Assembly (NCBI GenBank): GCA_965198235.1
Contig: OZ240248.1
Location: 1,440,001 to 1,504,000 of the forward strand
Length of the DNA stretch: 64,000 bases
Reading direction: 5' to 3'
Source of the DNA: Candidatus Poribacteria bacterium
Lineage (GTDB): Bacteria; Poribacteria; WGA-4E; WGA-3G
Positions 15,161 through 47,720 of this stretch are shown in pieces; within the stretch, counting starts at the first letter, position 1, and each line of letters opens with the position of its first letter. The notes below the pieces were generated by a model. It did no database searches, was not told where the DNA came from, and worked only from the letters and a program-made list of their open reading frames with translations. The translations under genes and the position numbers were made by a program.

Positions 15161-15500
15161 CCTGCAACAACGGCGCAGGCGGGTCTACGGGGAGGCAGAT
15201 GAATGCCCAAACCCAACTGACCGAACCGCAAGGAAAAATTAAAAACCTGCAACAACGACGCAGGCGGGTCTACGGGGAGGCAGATGAATGCCCAAACCCA
15301 ACTGACCGAACCGCAAGGAAAAATTAAAAACCTGCAACAGCGGCGCAGGTGGGTCTACGGGGAGGCAGATGAATGCCCAAACCCAACTGACCGAACCGCA
15401 AGGAAAAATTAAAAACCTGCAACAGCGGCGCAGGCGAATATACGTCGATTAACATTATTCGCTAATTCACCTAACCGAACCGCAAGGTATAATTAAAAAA
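15161..15500 (+). repeat. tandem array of 4 x 85-bp units of the CCGAACCGCAAGG element
   Basis: Units start at 15161, 15246, 15331 and 15416; the first three are nearly identical and the fourth has the same ends but a different middle. Confidence 0.95.
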
Positions 15501-27847: not shown

Positions 27848-28435
27848 GTGCTATCACCAGCAGCATTGAAATATAGGACTACAGTAGACCGCATAGAGAC
27901 GCTTCACCGGACCGCAACGGACAAGCGATTGCATCCCATGTCCCATGATGAGATACAGGTTTACTACCGCGCAGCACTTACCGGTTACGTCGCAGCGTGG
28001 AACGCATACATAAAAAACATCGTGTACGACTTCTACGATGTGATACCGAATTCATCCCCTATTTACGCAGTCGCCCGACAAGCGGTGGAAAGATCAACGG
28101 AGAGATTCAATACGCCAAACTGGGAAAATACACAGAAATTTCTTGAACAATGCACAGGACATGATCCTATCAATGACTGGATCTGGAGTCGACGTGAAAT
28201 GAATGGCTTTCAGGTTCGTGTGAGATTGAATGAAATTTTACGTGTCTGCCATAGTCTGGCACACGGTTCTGATATGCCTGCTTACAATTGGACACAATCG
28301 CCGAGTGGCAGAGTCCGCCTAACCAGCAAAGCCATTCAAGACACTGAGGCTTTCTTCAAAAACCTTGTCAATATTACGGACAGTGGTATGAAAGAGCATA
28401 TTAATCTGACTTACGGGCTCACCGCTTCTTGGTAA
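27848..28435 (+). CDS. HEPN-domain protein (RiboL-PSP/MAE_28990-like), catalytic motif apparently degenerate
   Basis: VAAWNAYIK helix, FNTPN, and LNEILRVCHSLAHG where RHxxAHG is expected. Confidence 0.65.
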   Translation: MLSPAALKYRTTVDRIETLHRTATDKRLHPMSHDEIQVYYRAALTGYVAAWNAYIKNIVYDFYDVIPNSSPIYAVARQAVERSTERFNTPNWENTQKFLEQCTGHDPINDWIWSRREMNGFQVRVRLNEILRVCHSLAHGSDMPAYNWTQSPSGRVRLTSKAIQDTEAFFKNLVNITDSGMKEHINLTYGLTASW

Positions 28436-28468
28436 TCAAGCTGTGTTCTACTGATACATTAGTAAATT

Positions 28469-28939
28469 ATGAAAAATCTCATAATAGCAAACTACAAACT
28501 TTTAATCGTATTAATCGTCTTAGTGGTCTTATTAAGTCTCGTGTACATGGCAGTGGATCTTCCCTTCACTGATTTAGAGAACATCCTTTTGCAAATTATT
28601 TTCTTAGCAATAGGATGTAGTGTTTCATTCTTTGTCGGGCAAAAGTCAGTTGAAAAGGCGGCGAAAGAAGTTATTAAACCACACGCTCGGTCTGCGTTTC
28701 GGCGCCTGATCTTCCTCTATCTGACCCTCCGGCGGGCGGCAGCCGCAATAGAATCAGCACAGCATTCAGAATCTCAAGAAAACTACCAAGTGATACTTGC
28801 CCGGCTTGAAGAAATTGTCACTGCACAACTGATGACAGCAGATGATGCCCTAAGCGATTGGGATGATATTGTTCCGGAAGATGTGAAAGAGTTAAAACAG
28901 AAACTCCAATCTGAAGATATAATGGAGGATGGACAATGA
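28469..28939 (+). CDS. hypothetical membrane protein (2 N-terminal TM helices)
   Basis: Two hydrophobic stretches followed by a helical tail; ATGA overlap with the next gene. Confidence 0.6.
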   Translation: MKNLIIANYKLLIVLIVLVVLLSLVYMAVDLPFTDLENILLQIIFLAIGCSVSFFVGQKSVEKAAKEVIKPHARSAFRRLIFLYLTLRRAAAAIESAQHSESQENYQVILARLEEIVTAQLMTADDALSDWDDIVPEDVKELKQKLQSEDIMEDGQ

Positions 28940-29394
28940 CTGAACCAATTCGTGGAAAAATCGCACGAGTACTTAACGAACGAGAAATTGCGATAAATGT
29001 CGGAACTACACATGGCGTGACTGTTGGTATGTACTTTGATGTGATGGATGCCCATGATGAAGATGTAAGAGATCCTGATACGAACGAAGTATTGGGCTCT
29101 ATTGAGCGTCCGAAAGTCAGAGTCAAGGTTACTTACATTCAAGAAAGACTGTCTGTAGCATCTACATACAGATCAGAAAGCGTCAATATTGGAGGTTCTG
29201 GATATGATATCCTTGGACCGTTCTCTAGATCTCTTATGCCACCCAATTGGGTAACGAAGTATGAGACGTTAAAAAAGAAAGAGAAAATTAGCGATGAGCT
29301 CAATGAGGAAGATAGCCTTGCAAAAACTGGCGATCCCGTTGTTCAAGTCATTGAGACACAAGAGGCGGAACAGGAAGATGCCAATAGAAAATAA
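28936..29394 (+). CDS. hypothetical protein, FlgT C-terminal-like beta domain
   Basis: IAINVG..HGV.VGM.F.V...DPDTNEVLG pattern; SD GGAGG. Confidence 0.55.
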   Translation: MTEPIRGKIARVLNEREIAINVGTTHGVTVGMYFDVMDAHDEDVRDPDTNEVLGSIERPKVRVKVTYIQERLSVASTYRSESVNIGGSGYDILGPFSRSLMPPNWVTKYETLKKKEKISDELNEEDSLAKTGDPVVQVIETQEAEQEDANRK

Positions 29395-29411
29395 AAGGAA
29401 CAAGGATCGTT

Positions 29412-31691
29412 ATGCCACGACTCACTGAACAGGAACAACAAGAAATCATCCGCTTTATTGAGGCAGACAAACCGCTGCCCGACAAATACCGCTTCCTGCT
29501 GTTTGAAGACAAACGCGAGGTAGAACTCGTCTGGAACGGCAAGACCAACGAGGTCTGCAACATCGTCCTCCCCTTTCAGACAATTGAGCACGTAGACGAA
29601 CCCCGCTCCGAAAAACTTTCCGATGACAATCTGCAACTCGATTTGTTTGACACACGTGGCCGCCAACGCAAAGGTTGGACGAACAAGTTAATCTGGGGCG
29701 ACAACAAACTGGTTTTGTCATCACTCAAGAACGGACCGCTGCGCGAGGAGATTGAAGCACAAGGCGGGCTCAAATTCATCTATATCGATCCGCCTTTTGA
29801 CGTGGGCGCGGATTTTTCTATGGATATCGAAATTGGTGGTGAGACGCTCACCAAAAATCCAAACATCCTTGAAGAAATCGCCTATCGCGATACTTGGGGT
29901 AAGGGTACGGATTCGTTCCTTACAATGATTCACGAAAGGTTGATTCTGATGCGAGATTTACTGACAGAGGATGGCAGTATCTATGTGCATTGTGATTGGC
30001 GGGTGAATTCATCACTTCGGTTTGTATTGAATGAAGTCTTTCATGATTCAAACTTCGTCAATGAAATTATCTGGAGACGTAAGCAAGCGCAGGCATGGTC
30101 TTCTGACCAGTTTGGTATAACGAATGATACTTTATTATTATATGGGAAATCGAGCGACCGTGTTTTCAACCCAACTTATTCAAAGGATGACGATAACACA
30201 GAAAAATACATTAAAGAACGATTCAAATTTGATGATGGAGACGGTCGGAAATATATGAAGTCTCCTTTAGTGAACCCTTTAGTGCGTCCCAATCTGCAAT
30301 ACGAGTTTCATGGTGTAAAGCCTCCCAAGACTGGTTGGTTGTATAAAAAAGAGCGCATGGAGGAAATGTATCAGAACAACGAGTTAGTAATGCCGGATAG
30401 TCCAAACGCTCGAATATACCGAAAAATTTATCTTGATACCTATCCGGGGCAGATGGTTCAGAATGTGTGGGTTGATATCCCTATAGTTAATCCAATGGCC
30501 GATGAACGAGTCGATTATCCCACCCAAAAGCCGGAAGCCCTACTCGAACGCATCATTAGGGCCTCCTCCAATGAAGGCGACCTCATCGCCGACTTCTTCT
30601 GCGGTTCTGGCACCACTGCCGCCGTTGCTGAAAAACTGGGGCGCAAGTGGATCGCTACAGACCTTGGCAAATTCGCCATCCACACCACGCGCAAACGAAT
30701 GATCGGAGTCCAGCGTCAACTAAAATCAGATAGCACAGACTACCGTGCCTTTGAGATTATTAATCTCGGTAAATATGAACGTCAACACTACATCGGTGTT
30801 AATCCAAATCTCCGCGAGGAGGAACAGCAGAAACAATTGATAGAAAGGGAAAAGGCGTTCATTGACCTCATCCTATGTGCTTATGCTGCTGAAAAGACTG
30901 AGGGGTTTACCAGTTTTCAGGGGAAGAAAGCCGGTAGACTGATAGCAATCGGTCCCGTCAATTTACCGGTAACACGCCTACTCATAGAGGAGATCATTCT
31001 TGAATGCCGCAAACATCAAGTTACTCGGGTAGATATTCTCGGCTTTGAGTTTGAGATGGGTCTATTTCCTAACGTGTTAGATGAGGCGAAAAGCAGGGAC
31101 ATCAACATCGCACCGAAATACATCCCCGCTGAAGTATTTGACAAGCGTGCAGTGGAGCAGGGGCAGGTGGTATTTCACGATGTAGCGTTCATTGAAGTCA
31201 AACCTCACATCAAGGCAGGTGGGAAAGGTAAGCCCGCGACAGTAGCGTTAGAATTAACCGATTTTTCCGTCTTTTACTCACAAGATTCCATCTCCAACGC
31301 TGAGCAGACACTCAAGAACAGGAGCAGTCGCATCGTGTTGGAAAAAGGGCAAGTCGTAAAGGTGAGCAAAGATGCAGATGGGATTGTCAGTCGAGACATA
31401 TTGACTAAAGAATGGACAGACTGGATCGACTATTGATCAGTTGATTTTGACTTTGAGAGCAAACACGAGATTATCCGCATGCAAGATTCAAAAATGGGTG
31501 AGTGGGAAGAACAGTGGACAGGCGACTACGTCTTTGAAAATGAGTGGCAAAGTTTCCGCACTAAGAAAGACCGCTCATTGGAATTAACCAGCGTCGCCCA
31601 CGAATGCACACCCGGCCGCCGCAAACTTGCTGTCAAGGTCGTTGACATCTTTGGCAATGACACAATGACGATTGTAGAGGTATCGGTGTGA
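29412..31691 (+). pseudogene. mod: type III R-M Mod (N6-adenine MTase) interrupted by an in-frame TGA at 31434-31436
   Basis: IYIDPPF, YPTQKPE, DFFCGSGTT; reading continues in frame DWIDY*SVDFDFES...KVVDIFGNDT to 31691. Confidence 0.85.
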
Positions 31692-31733
31692 AATTGCCCC
31701 TAAACATAGAAAATATTTTTTCAGGAGATAATC

Positions 31734-32087
31734 GTGTCAGAAAATATTAGAATATCCATGTTTGAAGTTGTAGGCAACCCTTTCTGCGTTGCTTCTGATG
31801 ACGGTCAGAAGGTTTATGACTATCTTGACACCGCTCTTAAAGCGGATCGAGAGGTAGCACTTTCATTTCGCAACGTCACAGCACTGACGGGTGCTTTCCT
31901 GAACGCTGCGGTAGGTCAGTTATATGGCACATTCAATGAAGAAAAAATCCATTCTCTGTTGAAAGTTGAAGATGCTGAACAAGACGATCTGGTACTATTG
32001 AATAGTGTTATCAATAAAGCCAAGTTGTACTTCAAAGATCCGAAAAGATATAACCAAGCGATTCGGGAAGCCATAGAGGATGGATAA
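31734..32087 (+). CDS. STAS-like domain protein (DUF4325)
   Basis: DGQKVY...VALSFRNV..LT.AFLNAAVGQLY; SD AGGAG. Confidence 0.75.
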   Translation: MSENIRISMFEVVGNPFCVASDDGQKVYDYLDTALKADREVALSFRNVTALTGAFLNAAVGQLYGTFNEEKIHSLLKVEDAEQDDLVLLNSVINKAKLYFKDPKRYNQAIREAIEDG

Positions 32088-32216
32088 CAATGATGCATAA
32101 AGCATGACCAGTCGATTCTCATCTTGGTTATTATAACGCAGGTTGCCATCTTTGTAGCATAATCTTTTAGATTGTGCCTGCGTGTGTCGCAAATTAAATG
32201 AAGTTTAAAAAAATAT

Positions 32217-32324
32217 TTCGGTAATCATAGAAGACCGATTCCCAATCAAGAAACGTCTGTAATCCTGTAAATCACAGAATCACAGAAATCACAGTTCAGA
32301 CAATGGACCCTCCACATTACCGAA
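32217..32324. mobile_element. MITE-like element with TTCGGTAAT TIR
   Basis: ttcggtaat...attaccgaa, same ends as 21848-22000; interior has aatcacag microrepeats ending in ttcagaca. Confidence 0.6.
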
Positions 32325-32437
32325 TTAAAAAATTAATCTTCATACAGTTTACGCTACAAAACCCCGCGGATACCCAACGGCTTTCAATAAACCGAAGACC
32401 GGCTACCATTCCTCAACTTTGAAGAGCTGTTCTATTT

Positions 32438-34303
32438 TCACGTAAACAGTGGAAATTCGAGTTGTTGTGGTTCTGTCTGTGTAGGCTTCGGTTGCCGGAT
32501 CTGTTCTGTTTCAGTTTTAGGCACGGTGTATGTTTCCGGTTTTTGCATCGGTTTCGGATAGGAGCCTGTATCTTTTCTATATCCATACCTATATCCATCG
32601 CGATGTCTGAAGCGTCTTAATTGGCTGAGGTTACCTGATTCACGTTTGTCTTTTGTATCTTTATAAAAATTATTTACACGGCATTCTTGCGGTTTCCCTG
32701 GAGGGGTCTTCTCAAAGCAGTTAATTACACCTTCTACGCGCCCGCTCTTCTTTGTTAGATAGACATGGTCGCCTCTGTGAAAACCGTTAATGTGAGATGC
32801 TTTGAAAATTTTCTGACGGAACCCTGGAAATTTTCCGCCTTTGGTACACCCAAAGCGATATTTGAGGTTATTCCGGCTTCCGTAGCCAAGGGCATGTATC
32901 ACAAATACAGGGACTTTCGCACAGGCTTCTTGTGGTGTGTTTTCAACGGCGGCTGCATCATAATAATGTGTCTTCGGCAGCCCAGCACTGTTACGGTTGT
33001 AGGCTGTCCGTCCTCCAGAACCACAAAATACAGGGAGTTGTGTCGCCTGTAGGGTCTCTACAAGTTTCCACCGAATCGTATTCACTGCCGCCGCGTCTGA
33101 TAACGAGAATCCGCGCTTTGATTTTGATAATACCGTCTTTTTTATTTTCTTTGCAATCTCTGGATGCCGCTTTTCTAATTCTTTACCCCAAAGTCCACCC
33201 TTTTTCTGGTTACACGTGTGACATGCCATCGTGAGGTTGTCGAGCCTGTCTGAACCGCCAAGGGCTTGTGGATAAATGTGTTCTATCTCTAAACGCTGCC
33301 CACCTTTGCCACAATAAGCACATTTTCGCTTCGTTAATTCCAATAAATACTCTCTCTTTTCACGTCTATATAAGGGCCCCCGTTGATATTCAATACCGTG
33401 AATATCGGGGTTCTCTAACAGTTGCATATCAAACTTGACTTCCTCAATAGCTAGACGTTTTATCGAATAGAGATTTGTCAATCTGCGTGTCCATGTTTCT
33501 AAGTTGAATACACGAGACATAAGACTCGGTGCAATCCAGCCGTTATCAGCACGTTTTTTGTGTCCAATACGCTCACGTTTCCAACGATACTTCGTGGGTG
33601 GCGTATTCTTCAACTTTGCTTTCAGGGCACTTCGTAAGAACCCTAACGTTTTCGACATCAGGGCATCGCGTTCCGCTTTTTTATCACGCATCATGATATG
33701 GTGAATCAGCTCGTCTCTTGTAAGACGTGCGACCTCTGCGTTCGTCATCTCAGGCATGAATTCTTTACGGGTACGGGATTTGATACGAGTATAACGATAC
33801 CGCTTGTCTTTCAATTGCGCAGACGACACTCTCACAAACTTGTTCTTCGTTTTTGACGAGTCTTTCGATAGATCGGACTCGTCTTCAGCACGTCTGTACC
33901 TCCATCCTTCAGTTTCCGTGAGAACAGGCACTTTACGTCCACGATTCGCCCAGCGCGCTGGCCGGTGTCGTAAATTTCGGGTTCTCCGCCCACGACGAAA
34001 GCCCGCTCTCTCTTTCAAAGCCTTCTTTATCTGGATCCCCCGATGATGAAGTTCTGCCTTCATGACAATGTTGTTCTCATTGTCTAAAATCGCAATCCCT
34101 GATGTTCGGGAACCTGGGTCCCAATTTAGAGAATAAACACCCGTTACGATCTCGTCCTCTGGTATCACGCGCTTGAGGATAATTGCAAACGGATATTTGC
34201 ACCATACTGCCGCCTCCCCATCACGAAGCAAACGACGGGCAACTGCGGGATGGCAGGGTTCCAAGACTTTCTTTTCAGAATCTATAACCGCAACTTTAAA
34301 CAT
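32438..34303 (-). CDS. iscB: IscB RNA-guided endonuclease (OMEGA), enlarged and CRISPR-associated
   Basis: PLMP-like VLEPCHPAVARRLL...YPFAIIL; RuvC-I WDPGSRTSG; bridge helix RRGRRTRNLRHRPARWANR; GWIAPSL; RuvC-II IEEVKFD...GIEYQRG; HNH CAYC...EIEHIYP...GGSD..DNL..ACHTCN; RuvC-III THYYDA. Confidence 0.95.
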   Translation of the reverse strand: MFKVAVIDSEKKVLEPCHPAVARRLLRDGEAAVWCKYPFAIILKRVIPEDEIVTGVYSLNWDPGSRTSGIAILDNENNIVMKAELHHRGIQIKKALKERAGFRRGRRTRNLRHRPARWANRGRKVPVLTETEGWRYRRAEDESDLSKDSSKTKNKFVRVSSAQLKDKRYRYTRIKSRTRKEFMPEMTNAEVARLTRDELIHHIMMRDKKAERDALMSKTLGFLRSALKAKLKNTPPTKYRWKRERIGHKKRADNGWIAPSLMSRVFNLETWTRRLTNLYSIKRLAIEEVKFDMQLLENPDIHGIEYQRGPLYRREKREYLLELTKRKCAYCGKGGQRLEIEHIYPQALGGSDRLDNLTMACHTCNQKKGGLWGKELEKRHPEIAKKIKKTVLSKSKRGFSLSDAAAVNTIRWKLVETLQATQLPVFCGSGGRTAYNRNSAGLPKTHYYDAAAVENTPQEACAKVPVFVIHALGYGSRNNLKYRFGCTKGGKFPGFRQKIFKASHINGFHRGDHVYLTKKSGRVEGVINCFEKTPPGKPQECRVNNFYKDTKDKRESGNLSQLRRFRHRDGYRYGYRKDTGSYPKPMQKPETYTVPKTETEQIRQPKPTQTEPQQLEFPLFT

Positions 34304-34324
34304 AAATGTTCTCTCAATAAGGTA

Positions 34325-34542
34325 TAATTCTTCTACTAAAAGCAGAAGATATTGACCTTTAGAGGTAAAGTGAGCCTCGTCAATGTTATCCGTGCTTTAT
34401 TCAGGGTTGACAGCGTATTGTAAAGCCATTTACATTGCACCCGACAGAGCTTTAGGCTGGCGTCATGCACCCAAAGGTGTCTATATCACCGGTAACGTAG
34501 TTGAAAACTTAGACTAGATACCACTTGAGCATGGAGTTGCAA
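34325..34542 (-). ncRNA. omegaRNA (HEARO-like) scaffold beginning with an anti-repeat (tracrRNA-like)
   Basis: Minus strand reads, in order: CTAGTCTAAG, AACTACGTT, ATAGACACC..TGGGTGC, GCCAGCC.AAAGCTCTG, AACATTGACGAGG, CACTTTACC, then hairpin TCTTCTGCT-TTT-AGTAGAAGA. These match my recollection of conserved omegaRNA blocks, directly upstream of iscB. Ends are approximate. Confidence 0.85.
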
Positions 34543-34636
34543 ATTTGCCGTCAATCTCCCGGTGAATTCACACTATCGGAGGTCGACAGCAAAATTCTTA
34601 AGAGGATTGCCGGTGACACCTACATTCTTGCATAGC

Positions 34637-35210
34637 GTTGCAACGCAAACATGCCCAAGCGATAACTGCATCTCGATGTGATAGTCGCGCCCGACATCAG
34701 AGTTGCAACGCAAACATGCCCAAGCGATAACTCACAACGATGTAGATCGCTTTCTTCGGCTGATAGGGTTCCAACGCAAACATGCCCAAGCGATAACTGA
34801 CGATATGATTAGACAAACTGGCAATGTAATCACGTTCCAACGCAAACATGCCCAAGCGATAACTCTTTCTCTGGATCGTATTGGGAATCGAGGTACGTAG
34901 GTTGCAGTTCAAACAGGCCCATAGGTGTCAATTTTAGAAAATATATCCGTCTTTTATGGGACTTGCGTGCTATATCTTGTCTGAATCACGGATGACACGG
35001 ATTTCGCAGATTTCGCAGATTTTGGAGTTCTCTGTCCGTGCGAGGTCTTTAGTAAGTGTTGGGTTTCACTGAGTATGTCTGTGATGGCAAGTATATGAAC
35101 GGTGGCTTAGTTTTCTATGAGTTGAAAGCATTTGTGGTTATCCGTTCAACCCAACCTACGATACTAAATTGACACCTATGGTTGCAACGCAAACATGCCC
35201 AAGCGATAAC
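34637..35210 (-). CRISPR. CRISPR array, 30-nt repeat GTTATCGCTTGGGCATGTTTGCGTTG(C/G)AAC (minus strand), 4 unique spacers, interrupted by a MITE
   Basis: Full repeats at 34637-34666, 34702-34731, 34768-34797, 34834-34863 and 35181-35210; partial degenerate repeat at 34901-34920 (16/20); spacers of 35, 36, 36 and 37 nt, mutually unrelated. Confidence 0.95.
34920..35180. mobile_element. composite MITE with CATAGGTGTCAATTT(T)AG TIRs inside the CRISPR array
   Basis: cataggtgtcaattttag at 34920 and ctaaattgacacctatg ending at 35180; same TIR end at 22268-22285; interior holds two other repeat families. Confidence 0.78.
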
Positions 35211-47447: not shown

Positions 47448-47720
47448 GTAAGCCCAAGCAACGCGCCGGGCTGGATATACGGGAAGGAACGTTCTCGTAA
47501 AATCCATCCTCACCGAACCGCAAGGTAAGTTAGAAGAATGTAAGCCCAAGCAACGCGCCGGGCTGGATGTCCGGGAAGGGGCGTTCTCGTAAAACCCGTC
47601 CTCACCGAACCGCAAGGTAAAATAAAAAAATGTAAGCCCAAGCAACGCGCCGGGCTGGATGTCCGGGAAGGAACGTTCTCGTAAAACCCGTCCTCACCGA
47701 ACCGCAAGGTAAATTTAAAA
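47448..47720 (+). repeat. 3 x 92-bp tandem CCGAACCGCAAGG-family units
   Basis: gtaagcccaagcaacgcgccgggc starts at 47448, 47540 and 47632; each unit ends ccgaaccgcaagg + A-rich tail. Confidence 0.95.

Follow-up and report, generated by a model that had tools for sequence, protein, structure and literature searches.

We analysed a 64,000-nucleotide (nt) stretch of the forward strand of contig OZ240248.1 (assembly GCA_965198235.1, positions 1,440,001 to 1,504,000; hereafter the window) from a Candidatus Poribacteria sponge symbiont. Positions 32438-35210 of the window hold, on the minus strand, a CRISPR array, an omegaRNA and the gene of an enlarged IscB nuclease. Our results suggest that these parts make up a domesticated, chromosomal CRISPR-associated IscB system of the CasIscB type, consisting of one RNA locus and one protein and serving phage defence, a reading to which we assign a probability of about 0.78. 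The kind is already known, since CRISPR-associated IscBs and IscBs with REC-like inserts have both been published. The features of the locus are as follows.

32438-34303, minus strand: iscB, 621 amino acids (aa), with PLMP/RRXRR N-terminus, RuvC-I, bridge helix, insertion, RuvC-II, HNH, RuvC-III and a C-terminal domain with disordered tail
33554-33940, minus strand: REC-position insertion; on its own it has no structural match
34365-34587, minus strand: omegaRNA core (Rfam HEARO match under the gathering score)
34516-34543, minus strand: anti-repeat in the omegaRNA, like a trans-activating CRISPR RNA (tracrRNA), complementary to the repeat (RNAduplex, RNAalifold)
34544-34636, minus strand: conserved 93-nt segment from last repeat to anti-repeat; candidate leader or loop of a cis guide RNA
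34637-34666, minus strand: repeat 5, omega-proximal; predicted to pair in cis with the anti-repeat
34667-34701, minus strand: spacer 4, 35 nt; no target found in the searches given below
34702-34731, minus strand: repeat 4
34732-34767, minus strand: spacer 3, 36 nt; in two other Poribacteria genomes, identical over 36/36 to the major head protein gene of a phage
34768-34797, minus strand: repeat 3, one mismatch
34798-34833, minus strand: spacer 2, 36 nt; no target found in the same searches
34834-34863, minus strand: repeat 2, one mismatch
34864-34900, minus strand: spacer 1, 37 nt; 2-5 mismatches to the phage head gene
34901-34920, minus strand: degenerate remnant of an old repeat, its 3' 20 nt
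34919-35180, minus strand: dispersed repeat resembling a miniature inverted-repeat transposable element (MITE), with 12-13-nt inverted ends
35181-35210, minus strand: repeat 1, the distal anchor; its position is shared by the three orthologous loci

The original prediction, made from the letters of the window, had described five 30-nt repeats and four spacers on the minus strand, and this is what we find, with the first gap now resolved into a MITE-like insert, a repeat remnant and a spacer. The repeats follow the consensus GTTATCGCTTGGGCATGTTTGCGTTGCAAC (three exact copies, two with one mismatch each); the count expected in a shuffled window is 0, and in the 5.17-Mb genome the 30-nt repeat occurs only at these five positions. 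The array adjoins iscB on its strand, which is assigned from repeat/anti-repeat complementarity and from the 3' flank motif described below. Its four unique spacers (35-37 nt), numbered 1 to 4 from the end distal to the omegaRNA to the proximal end, all keep an intact downstream repeat. Repeats 1 and 2 are separated by 317 nt, made up of the 262-nt MITE-like element, the 20-nt degenerate remnant and spacer 1. The 262-nt insert was considered as a spacer and rejected: it is a dispersed repeat that landed in the array, with 65 further full or partial BLAST matches in the genome, the best other genomic copy being 83% identical over 243 nt. A 9-nt tandem repeat lies inside it at 35000-35022. Elsewhere in the window, a k-mer scan returned two further short periodic repeats (15181-15476 and 47448-47701), which have 3-4 copies at periods of about 98 and 127 nt.

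Rfam HEARO matches the RNA between array and iscB over the full model (minus strand, 68.4 bits, E 6.4e-13), though under the gathering score, and the core helices of the omegaRNA covary in a nine-locus alignment. The array belongs to IscB because the anti-repeat within the omegaRNA covaries with the repeat in nine of nine loci. Indeed, RNAduplex places the anti-repeat 93-95 nt past the last repeat in all nine, although the repeats vary among loci, and RNAalifold recovers from the alignment alone a helix of repeat columns 1-16 with anti-repeat columns 191-206, six pairs of which show compensatory changes. The 93-nt segment in between contains a conserved hairpin at about 34544-34596. In the six genomes searched, the IscB-array repeat family is confined to IscB loci. 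Sequence comparison thus supports the proposal, already part of the original prediction, that the array, the omega/tracr hybrid RNA and the enlarged IscB belong together as one unit. Two array-free Poribacteria IscB loci (L022 and L024) carry exactly one repeat-like copy at this place, and after it come the same internal segment and anti-repeat. In this family the CRISPR repeat therefore appears to be the 5' strand of an omegaRNA stem, and the last unit of spacer and repeat effectively makes up a complete omegaRNA.

In three RNA-library runs from two studies, contigs match parts of the locus that include iscB, the omegaRNA and the last repeat. One, of 299 nt, is identical to 34368-34666, and another, of 2767 nt and from a relative at 95.5% identity, spans iscB to the last repeat. 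They are a weak hint of expression, as they give neither strand nor level and may include DNA. The uncovered parts of the array and the contig ends at 34665/34666 were set aside, since they are most likely assembly breaks at repeats. Three weak HEARO matches occur elsewhere in the window's genome, and six further open reading frames (ORFs) of 185-413 aa (L007-L012) match only the RRXRR N-terminal part (E 1e-8 to 2e-5); these ORFs and the weak HEARO matches are probably ordinary IscB/IsrB-type elements.

Two of the four spacers lead to a phage gene. Across 176 genomes of the phylum, spacer 3 is identical over 36 of 36 nt in two genomes and 89-97% identical in others, and on the same contigs a second site, about 1.19 kb away, is 84-95% identical to spacer 1; the two sites stand on one contig in about 14 genomes. 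Both lie inside a gene of 453 aa that matches PHROG 3922, a major head protein (E 1.6e-13), has no Pfam match, and is matched by window spacers in about 20 other Poribacteria genomes. The adjoining genes match a head maturation protease, a portal protein and a large terminase, and the phage-like contigs (45-140 kb) are separate small contigs in nearly closed assemblies. Some match to the array occurs in 29 of the 175 other genomes of the phylum, part of these being matches to repeats or arrays and not protospacers; the window's own genome holds no match to the four spacers outside the array itself. Searched in distant mode at E <= 1, the 264-nt array found no match among 50,697 phage records.

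Of 140 spacers, 13, which come from six IscB arrays (window, L015, L016, L017, L018 and L025), match these phage-like contigs, and one spacer of L015 has its match on the opposite strand, overlapping the spacer-3 site. The long L018 array, compared with the 176 genomes with two candidates per genome scored, gave one clear protospacer and isolated single repeats, the latter probably other IscB loci. One 24-nt piece of a twice-acquired L021 spacer, the only spacer sequence scanned against IMG/VR, had 0 matches there. Because its spacers match phage head genes, the locus looks like a multi-guide defence nuclease, and defence against a tailed phage of Poribacteria is well supported as its natural job by these matches.

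Directly 3' of the protospacer (in the iscB sense), NGG stands in 9 of the 13 best matches, or in 10 of 13 when L017 spacer 4 is represented by a variant that fits equally well, where by our own arithmetic chance would give about 1/16 per site. The motif lies at the repeat-proximal end of the spacer, the side on which characterised IscBs have their target-adjacent motif (TAM); a 3' TAM is described for OgeuIscB in the accessible part of one source (PMC10734217). The 5' flanks of the protospacers show no common motif, and a 5'-TT flank seen at two of them was dropped when it failed with 11-13 protospacers. In several spacers the mismatches to phage variants cluster at the repeat-distal end, a pattern that fits a short, TAM-proximal effective guide.

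Two contigs with the target gene, G118:C178 (95.9 kb) and G061:C1, also hold, at distances of 22-50 kb from the protospacers, copies of short IscB-omegaRNA units of the same family with a single guide. The IscB lineage that hosts turned against the phage-like element may thus have that very element as a vehicle.

The protein is an intact IscB. The 621-aa ORF, predicted to carry RuvC and HNH motifs, scores 334 bits with NCBIfam guided_IscB (cut-off 175) and retains the PLMP-like N-terminus that had been recognised in it (Pfam PF14239 RRXRR, residues 4-125, 169.5 bits). Pfam HNH matches fall at residues 328-370, and D62, E287, H342, H446 and D449, together with the four HNH cysteines, lie in columns that are invariant, or nearly so, across 38 aligned proteins. 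In a phmmer search of PDB sequences, the best solved relative is TbaIscB (114 bits versus 60-71 bits for other IscBs), which aligns through its PLMP/RuvC-I/bridge-helix part with residues 2-125 and through its RuvC-II/HNH/RuvC-III part with residues 250-466, leaving 126-249 unaligned. The AlphaFold2 model of the full protein, with a mean predicted local distance difference test (pLDDT) score of 74.8, finds its best Foldseek matches in IscB-omegaRNA-DNA complexes, and the added part is modelled as beta-strands plus four short helices at 186-232 with pLDDT >90. The ratio of nonsynonymous to synonymous substitution rates (dN/dS) is 0.27-0.31 between the window protein and three orthologues and 0.27-0.33 among the four, with a dS of only 0.10-0.14 between the window IscB and the orthologues.

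From these elements we propose the following mechanism. The array and the omegaRNA would be read on the iscB strand, and the 5' 16 nt of each repeat would pair with the anti-repeat, which would replace the 3' strand of the first omegaRNA helix, so that each spacer would be placed exactly at the normal guide position of an omegaRNA. The last spacer and repeat would fold in cis and complete a single guide RNA; earlier units would probably pair in trans, in the manner of a CRISPR RNA with its tracrRNA. The ribonucleoprotein would use RuvC and HNH to cut DNA that has a match to a spacer's repeat-proximal part and a 3' motif close to NGG, an activity suggested by the intact catalytic residues and by characterised IscBs. 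New spacers would enter at the omega-proximal end.

The genomic setting argues for domestication. The locus occupies one syntenic chromosomal site in four species, with both flanks collinear with three other species-level genomes at 84-90% identity. Between orthologous loci, iscB and the omegaRNA (window 32438-34666) are 92-94.5% identical, and this higher identity could reflect recent interspecies exchange of the unit or strong constraint. The iscB unit is single-copy in the genome. As had been predicted, there is no Y1 tnpA in the window (the closest one lies at a distance of about 424 kb) and no cas1 or cas2 beside the locus, the Cas1 of this genome lying 1.26 Mb away. Since the unit is syntenic in four species and lacks a tnpA, its comparison across genomes supports the view that it is no longer a transposon, and with spacers that match phage head genes it looks like the domesticated multi-guide defence nuclease of the original prediction.

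The locus has an acetamidase-like gene and a protease of the HtrA type upstream of it. On the downstream side, the genes for a HEPN RiboL-PSP protein, a DUF4325 protein and an N6/N4 DNA methylase of 674 aa (window 27848-32087, 31438-32429) look like a small defence island. The restriction-modification island proposed earlier is upheld in part, since no restriction enzyme was identified in the flank. About 1 kb adjoining iscB is missing from two of the three orthologous loci, and the non-syntenic Poribacteria loci have no common neighbour ORF of >=70 aa at E <= 1e-8 apart from iscB.

Homologues at E <= 1e-40 occur in 20 of the 176 genomes of the phylum, and a 92-93% orthologue in three other genomes (G156, G176 and G178), all of the same genus as the window. 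Among 44 related loci from genome contigs, 10 have arrays of >=3 repeats, nine of them directly upstream of iscB and all in Candidatus Poribacteria. In other phyla, 0 of 31 loci have such an array. The IscB arrays have 4 to 28 repeats of 30 nt and spacers of 34-40 nt, and end 300-425 nt before the start codon. The JGI metagenomes yielded 80 loci, all <=49% identical and six with small arrays, and no close relatives. One short Poribacteria IscB, at L023:7440-8236, stands directly upstream of an 11-repeat array that is unrelated and whose repeat measures 37 nt.

Related genomes carry the same repeat family with different spacers. The four syntenic loci have a common distal anchor repeat and spacers that are almost all different; there has therefore been turnover since their split. 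One distal-end remnant is common to L015 and L016. Degenerate repeats at the distal end in L015, L019, L021, L025 and L046, a private repeat variant in the four proximal repeats of L015, one spacer present twice in L046 and two spacers offset by one base in L021 point to real acquisition at the omega-proximal end, as far as array comparison can indicate it. At L015:5115-5166, the 52-nt interval after the first degenerate repeat is no spacer; it is a dispersed Poribacteria repeat of about 30 nt, found at >60 places in the window's genome.

The enzyme that inserts spacers is not encoded at the locus, and our leading guess is that host Cas1-Cas2, of type I-G, is used in trans. The genome has a complete-looking type I-G system (G000:C1:2718693-2738100, L059) with a Cas4g/Cas1g fusion (627 bits), Cas3, Cas6 and an array of 56 repeats; an HsdR-like gene stands beside it. 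A search with 614 nt of its array found the type I-G repeat family in 74 of 111 other genomes of the family, and 0 of its 55 spacers match the phage pieces with which they were compared. Genomes G002-G005, whose IscB arrays have 13-28 repeats, hold 2-3 Cas1 genes apiece, and in these, as in all of the 10 other related genomes checked, no Cas1 lies closer to the IscB locus than about 95 kb. G178 has only a Cas1 fragment. G156, assembled in one contig and with 9 repeats, has no Cas1, yet one of its spacers is identical over 38 of 38 nt to a phage contig.

The 125-aa insertion of the window IscB at the REC position is lineage-specific and nested. In an alignment of nine Poribacteria IscBs, the short forms have 26 aa at this position, whereas L018, L019 and L046 have 78 aa. 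The window lineage reaches about 134 aa by one more insertion, of about 55 aa, and L021 has a different form of 151 aa. Among the loci with upstream sequence, arrays occur in 10 of 10 enlarged IscBs versus 0 of 11 short ones, a count that leaves out L181 and L193 (no upstream sequence) and whose rows are kin, so that it describes an association and is not a test. The only short IscB with an array, L025, is frameshifted and its array is small. In the Poribacteria IscB family the insertion is thus associated with arrays, and it probably contacts the guide-target duplex.

We also built a tree of 75 rows, namely 63 thinned from 121 proteins, with those <440 aa dropped, plus 12 locus-derived rows, after removal of the insertion columns. 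It comes from a quick IQ-TREE run with support from the Shimodaira-Hasegawa-like approximate likelihood ratio test (SH-aLRT) only, and Cas9, TbaIscB and DelIscB are not among its rows. The window falls in a 41-row clade, all with the insertion, to which the short form P0059 is basal (SH-aLRT 99 for the 42 rows). A second clade is mostly short and contains several separate large insertions. In this tree the presence of an insertion needs at least seven changes and arises in two clades of a Poribacteria-centred IscB group.

Because insertions arise several times inside that group, they point to a parallel lineage rather than to the stem of Cas9. The original prediction had proposed a compact IscB-to-Cas9 intermediate, and a place on that stem lineage could draw on TbaIscB as the best solved relative and on the presence of an array, an anti-repeat and a REC-position insertion. 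This placing is not borne out, and we regard a true stem intermediate as quite improbable: the protein scores as an IscB and not as a Cas9 (45.2 bits with NCBIfam Cas9d, cut-off 375; 30 bits with Cas9 TIGR01865, cut-off 100), array-free sisters in the same phylum keep one guide, and the insertion changes at least seven times over two clades in a tree without Cas9. The insertion also shows no detectable likeness to solved REC domains. Modelled alone (AlphaFold2 pLDDT 63.5), it has 0 PDB matches at E <= 0.001 and a best Foldseek E of 3.6, a negative weakened by the low model confidence, and the ESM Atlas gave a best score of 0.76 and no lead. A bolder proposal, which we put forward tentatively and consider doubtful, is that this sponge-symbiont IscB family re-invented a Cas9-like adaptive effector in parallel: the REC-position insertion would have been gained with arrays derived from the 5' strand of the first omegaRNA helix, and NGG-flanked phage spacers would be taken up omega-proximally without a dedicated adaptation module. 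Because a complete orthologue genome without Cas1 has a spacer matching phage over 38 of 38 nt, uptake might be Cas1-free, or IscB might choose the protospacer.

A number of observations weigh against our preferred reading of a domesticated CRISPR-associated IscB defence system. The HEARO match covers the whole model but scores under the Rfam gathering score of 83; the insertion is modelled at moderate confidence and is without a structural relative; and a promoter and terminator scan found 6 promoter-like sites against 5.4 expected from shuffles. Transcription strand, RNA processing and cleavage are deduced from the sequence, as is the TAM, taken from flanks alone, and three of the 13 protospacers have no NGG (TGC, AAG and GTC). 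Spacers 2 and 4 have no target in the own genome, the 50,697 phage records or the 176 genomes of the phylum. The window array is short and interrupted by the MITE-like element, an orthologue occurs in only 4 of the 65 genomes of the genus, and no adaptation gene is linked to the locus, with one of the four orthologue genomes lacking Cas1 and one holding a fragment only. Several of these points would suit a decaying relic, in which nuclease and RNA persist and the array no longer takes up spacers or protects: the array is split, with a degenerate repeat remnant and four spacers left, two of them without target; few genomes of the genus keep an orthologue; intact Cas1 is missing from two that do; and L025, a short relative whose array is small, carries a frameshift. 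We nevertheless consider a relic unlikely. The ORF is intact with its catalytic residues and a dN/dS of 0.27-0.31, iscB and omegaRNA are more alike between species than their flanks (92-94.5% versus 84-90%), spacer 3 matches extant phage sequences over its full 36 nt, every spacer is followed by an intact repeat, and the nearly complete difference in spacers between the four syntenic loci indicates turnover since their split. It is more improbable still, to the point of being hardly tenable, that the array serves the type I-G system or the element's own transposition or homing instead of defence by IscB. The genome does have a type I-G system with a 56-repeat array, and guides of canonical IscBs are known to serve the transposon, as established for OMEGA systems, named for obligate mobile element guided activity (accessible part of PMC10734217). 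However, the type I-G repeat is 37 nt long and unrelated to the 30-nt IscB repeat; the anti-repeat covaries with the IscB repeat; the locus is syntenic and has no tnpA; and the spacers match phage structural genes and nothing in their own genome.

Set beside canonical IscBs, for which OgeuIscB may stand, the window system has the same domain order, catalytic residues, putative HEARO-type core, guide directly 5' of the first helix and 3' TAM, as far as the accessible descriptions go. It differs in having a multi-spacer array instead of a single flank-derived guide, a first helix that can form between two RNAs, and a fixed chromosomal site without tnpA or mobility; where OgeuIscB has a beta-hairpin linker, the window IscB has its large insertion. 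Type II-D Cas9 (Cas9d) and TbaIscB resemble it in compact size and in an omega-like, large guide RNA, and adaptation genes are often not near type II-D Cas9. In contrast to Cas9d, the window protein fails the NCBIfam Cas9d cut-off, keeps the PLMP/RRXRR N-terminus and carries an insertion without detectable likeness to solved REC domains.

CRISPR-associated IscBs with a repeat/anti-repeat non-coding RNA and no adaptation genes were reported in 2021 by Altae-Tran et al., according to the accessible text of two later papers (PMC12660989, PMC10734217). The accessible part of the former describes DelIscB, which has been engineered, as a protein of 457 aa with TAM NAC and without the P1-interaction domain. 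Within what that text covers, the window system is like DelIscB and CasIscBs in its upstream CRISPR array, its omegaRNA core joined to an anti-repeat and the lack of an adjoining cas1 or cas2; it differs in the 621-aa IscB, the nested insertion and the likely NGG-like TAM. DelIscB is no close relative, because the 23-residue fingerprint given there (PMC12660989) is matched at best at 5 of 23 residues among 121 proteins. IscBs with diverse natural REC-like insertions were screened by Kannan et al. 2025, who set CasIscBs aside from their tree (accessible part of PMC13180657). Compared with the IscBs described in that part, the insertion of the window family accompanies CRISPR arrays and is nested stepwise. 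In the searchable literature we found no Poribacteria clade, insertion-array link, natural phage targets or NGG-like flank, and no report of array turnover for a CRISPR-associated IscB; the 2021 primary paper or its supplements may list the clade, as may the IscB tables of Kannan et al.

A rare, known kind of system is thus seen in nature with phage-targeting spacers, that is, at immune work, and its 621-aa nuclease with a putative NGG-like TAM may interest genome-editing groups. Reconstructions of the step from a transposon's single-guide nuclease to an immune effector served by a spacer library usually draw on engineered proteins and a handful of metagenomic loci. Here, the whole series can be seen in one phylum: IscBs with a single guide, of which some lie on phage-like contigs; a short IscB whose array has four repeats; and enlarged IscBs whose arrays reach 28 repeats. 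As its phage targets can be identified and its TAM can be read, this series makes three questions testable: where a CRISPR repeat comes from, here apparently the 5' strand of an omegaRNA stem; whether growth at the REC position accompanies the use of an array; and what the source of spacers is for an array without linked cas1 and cas2.

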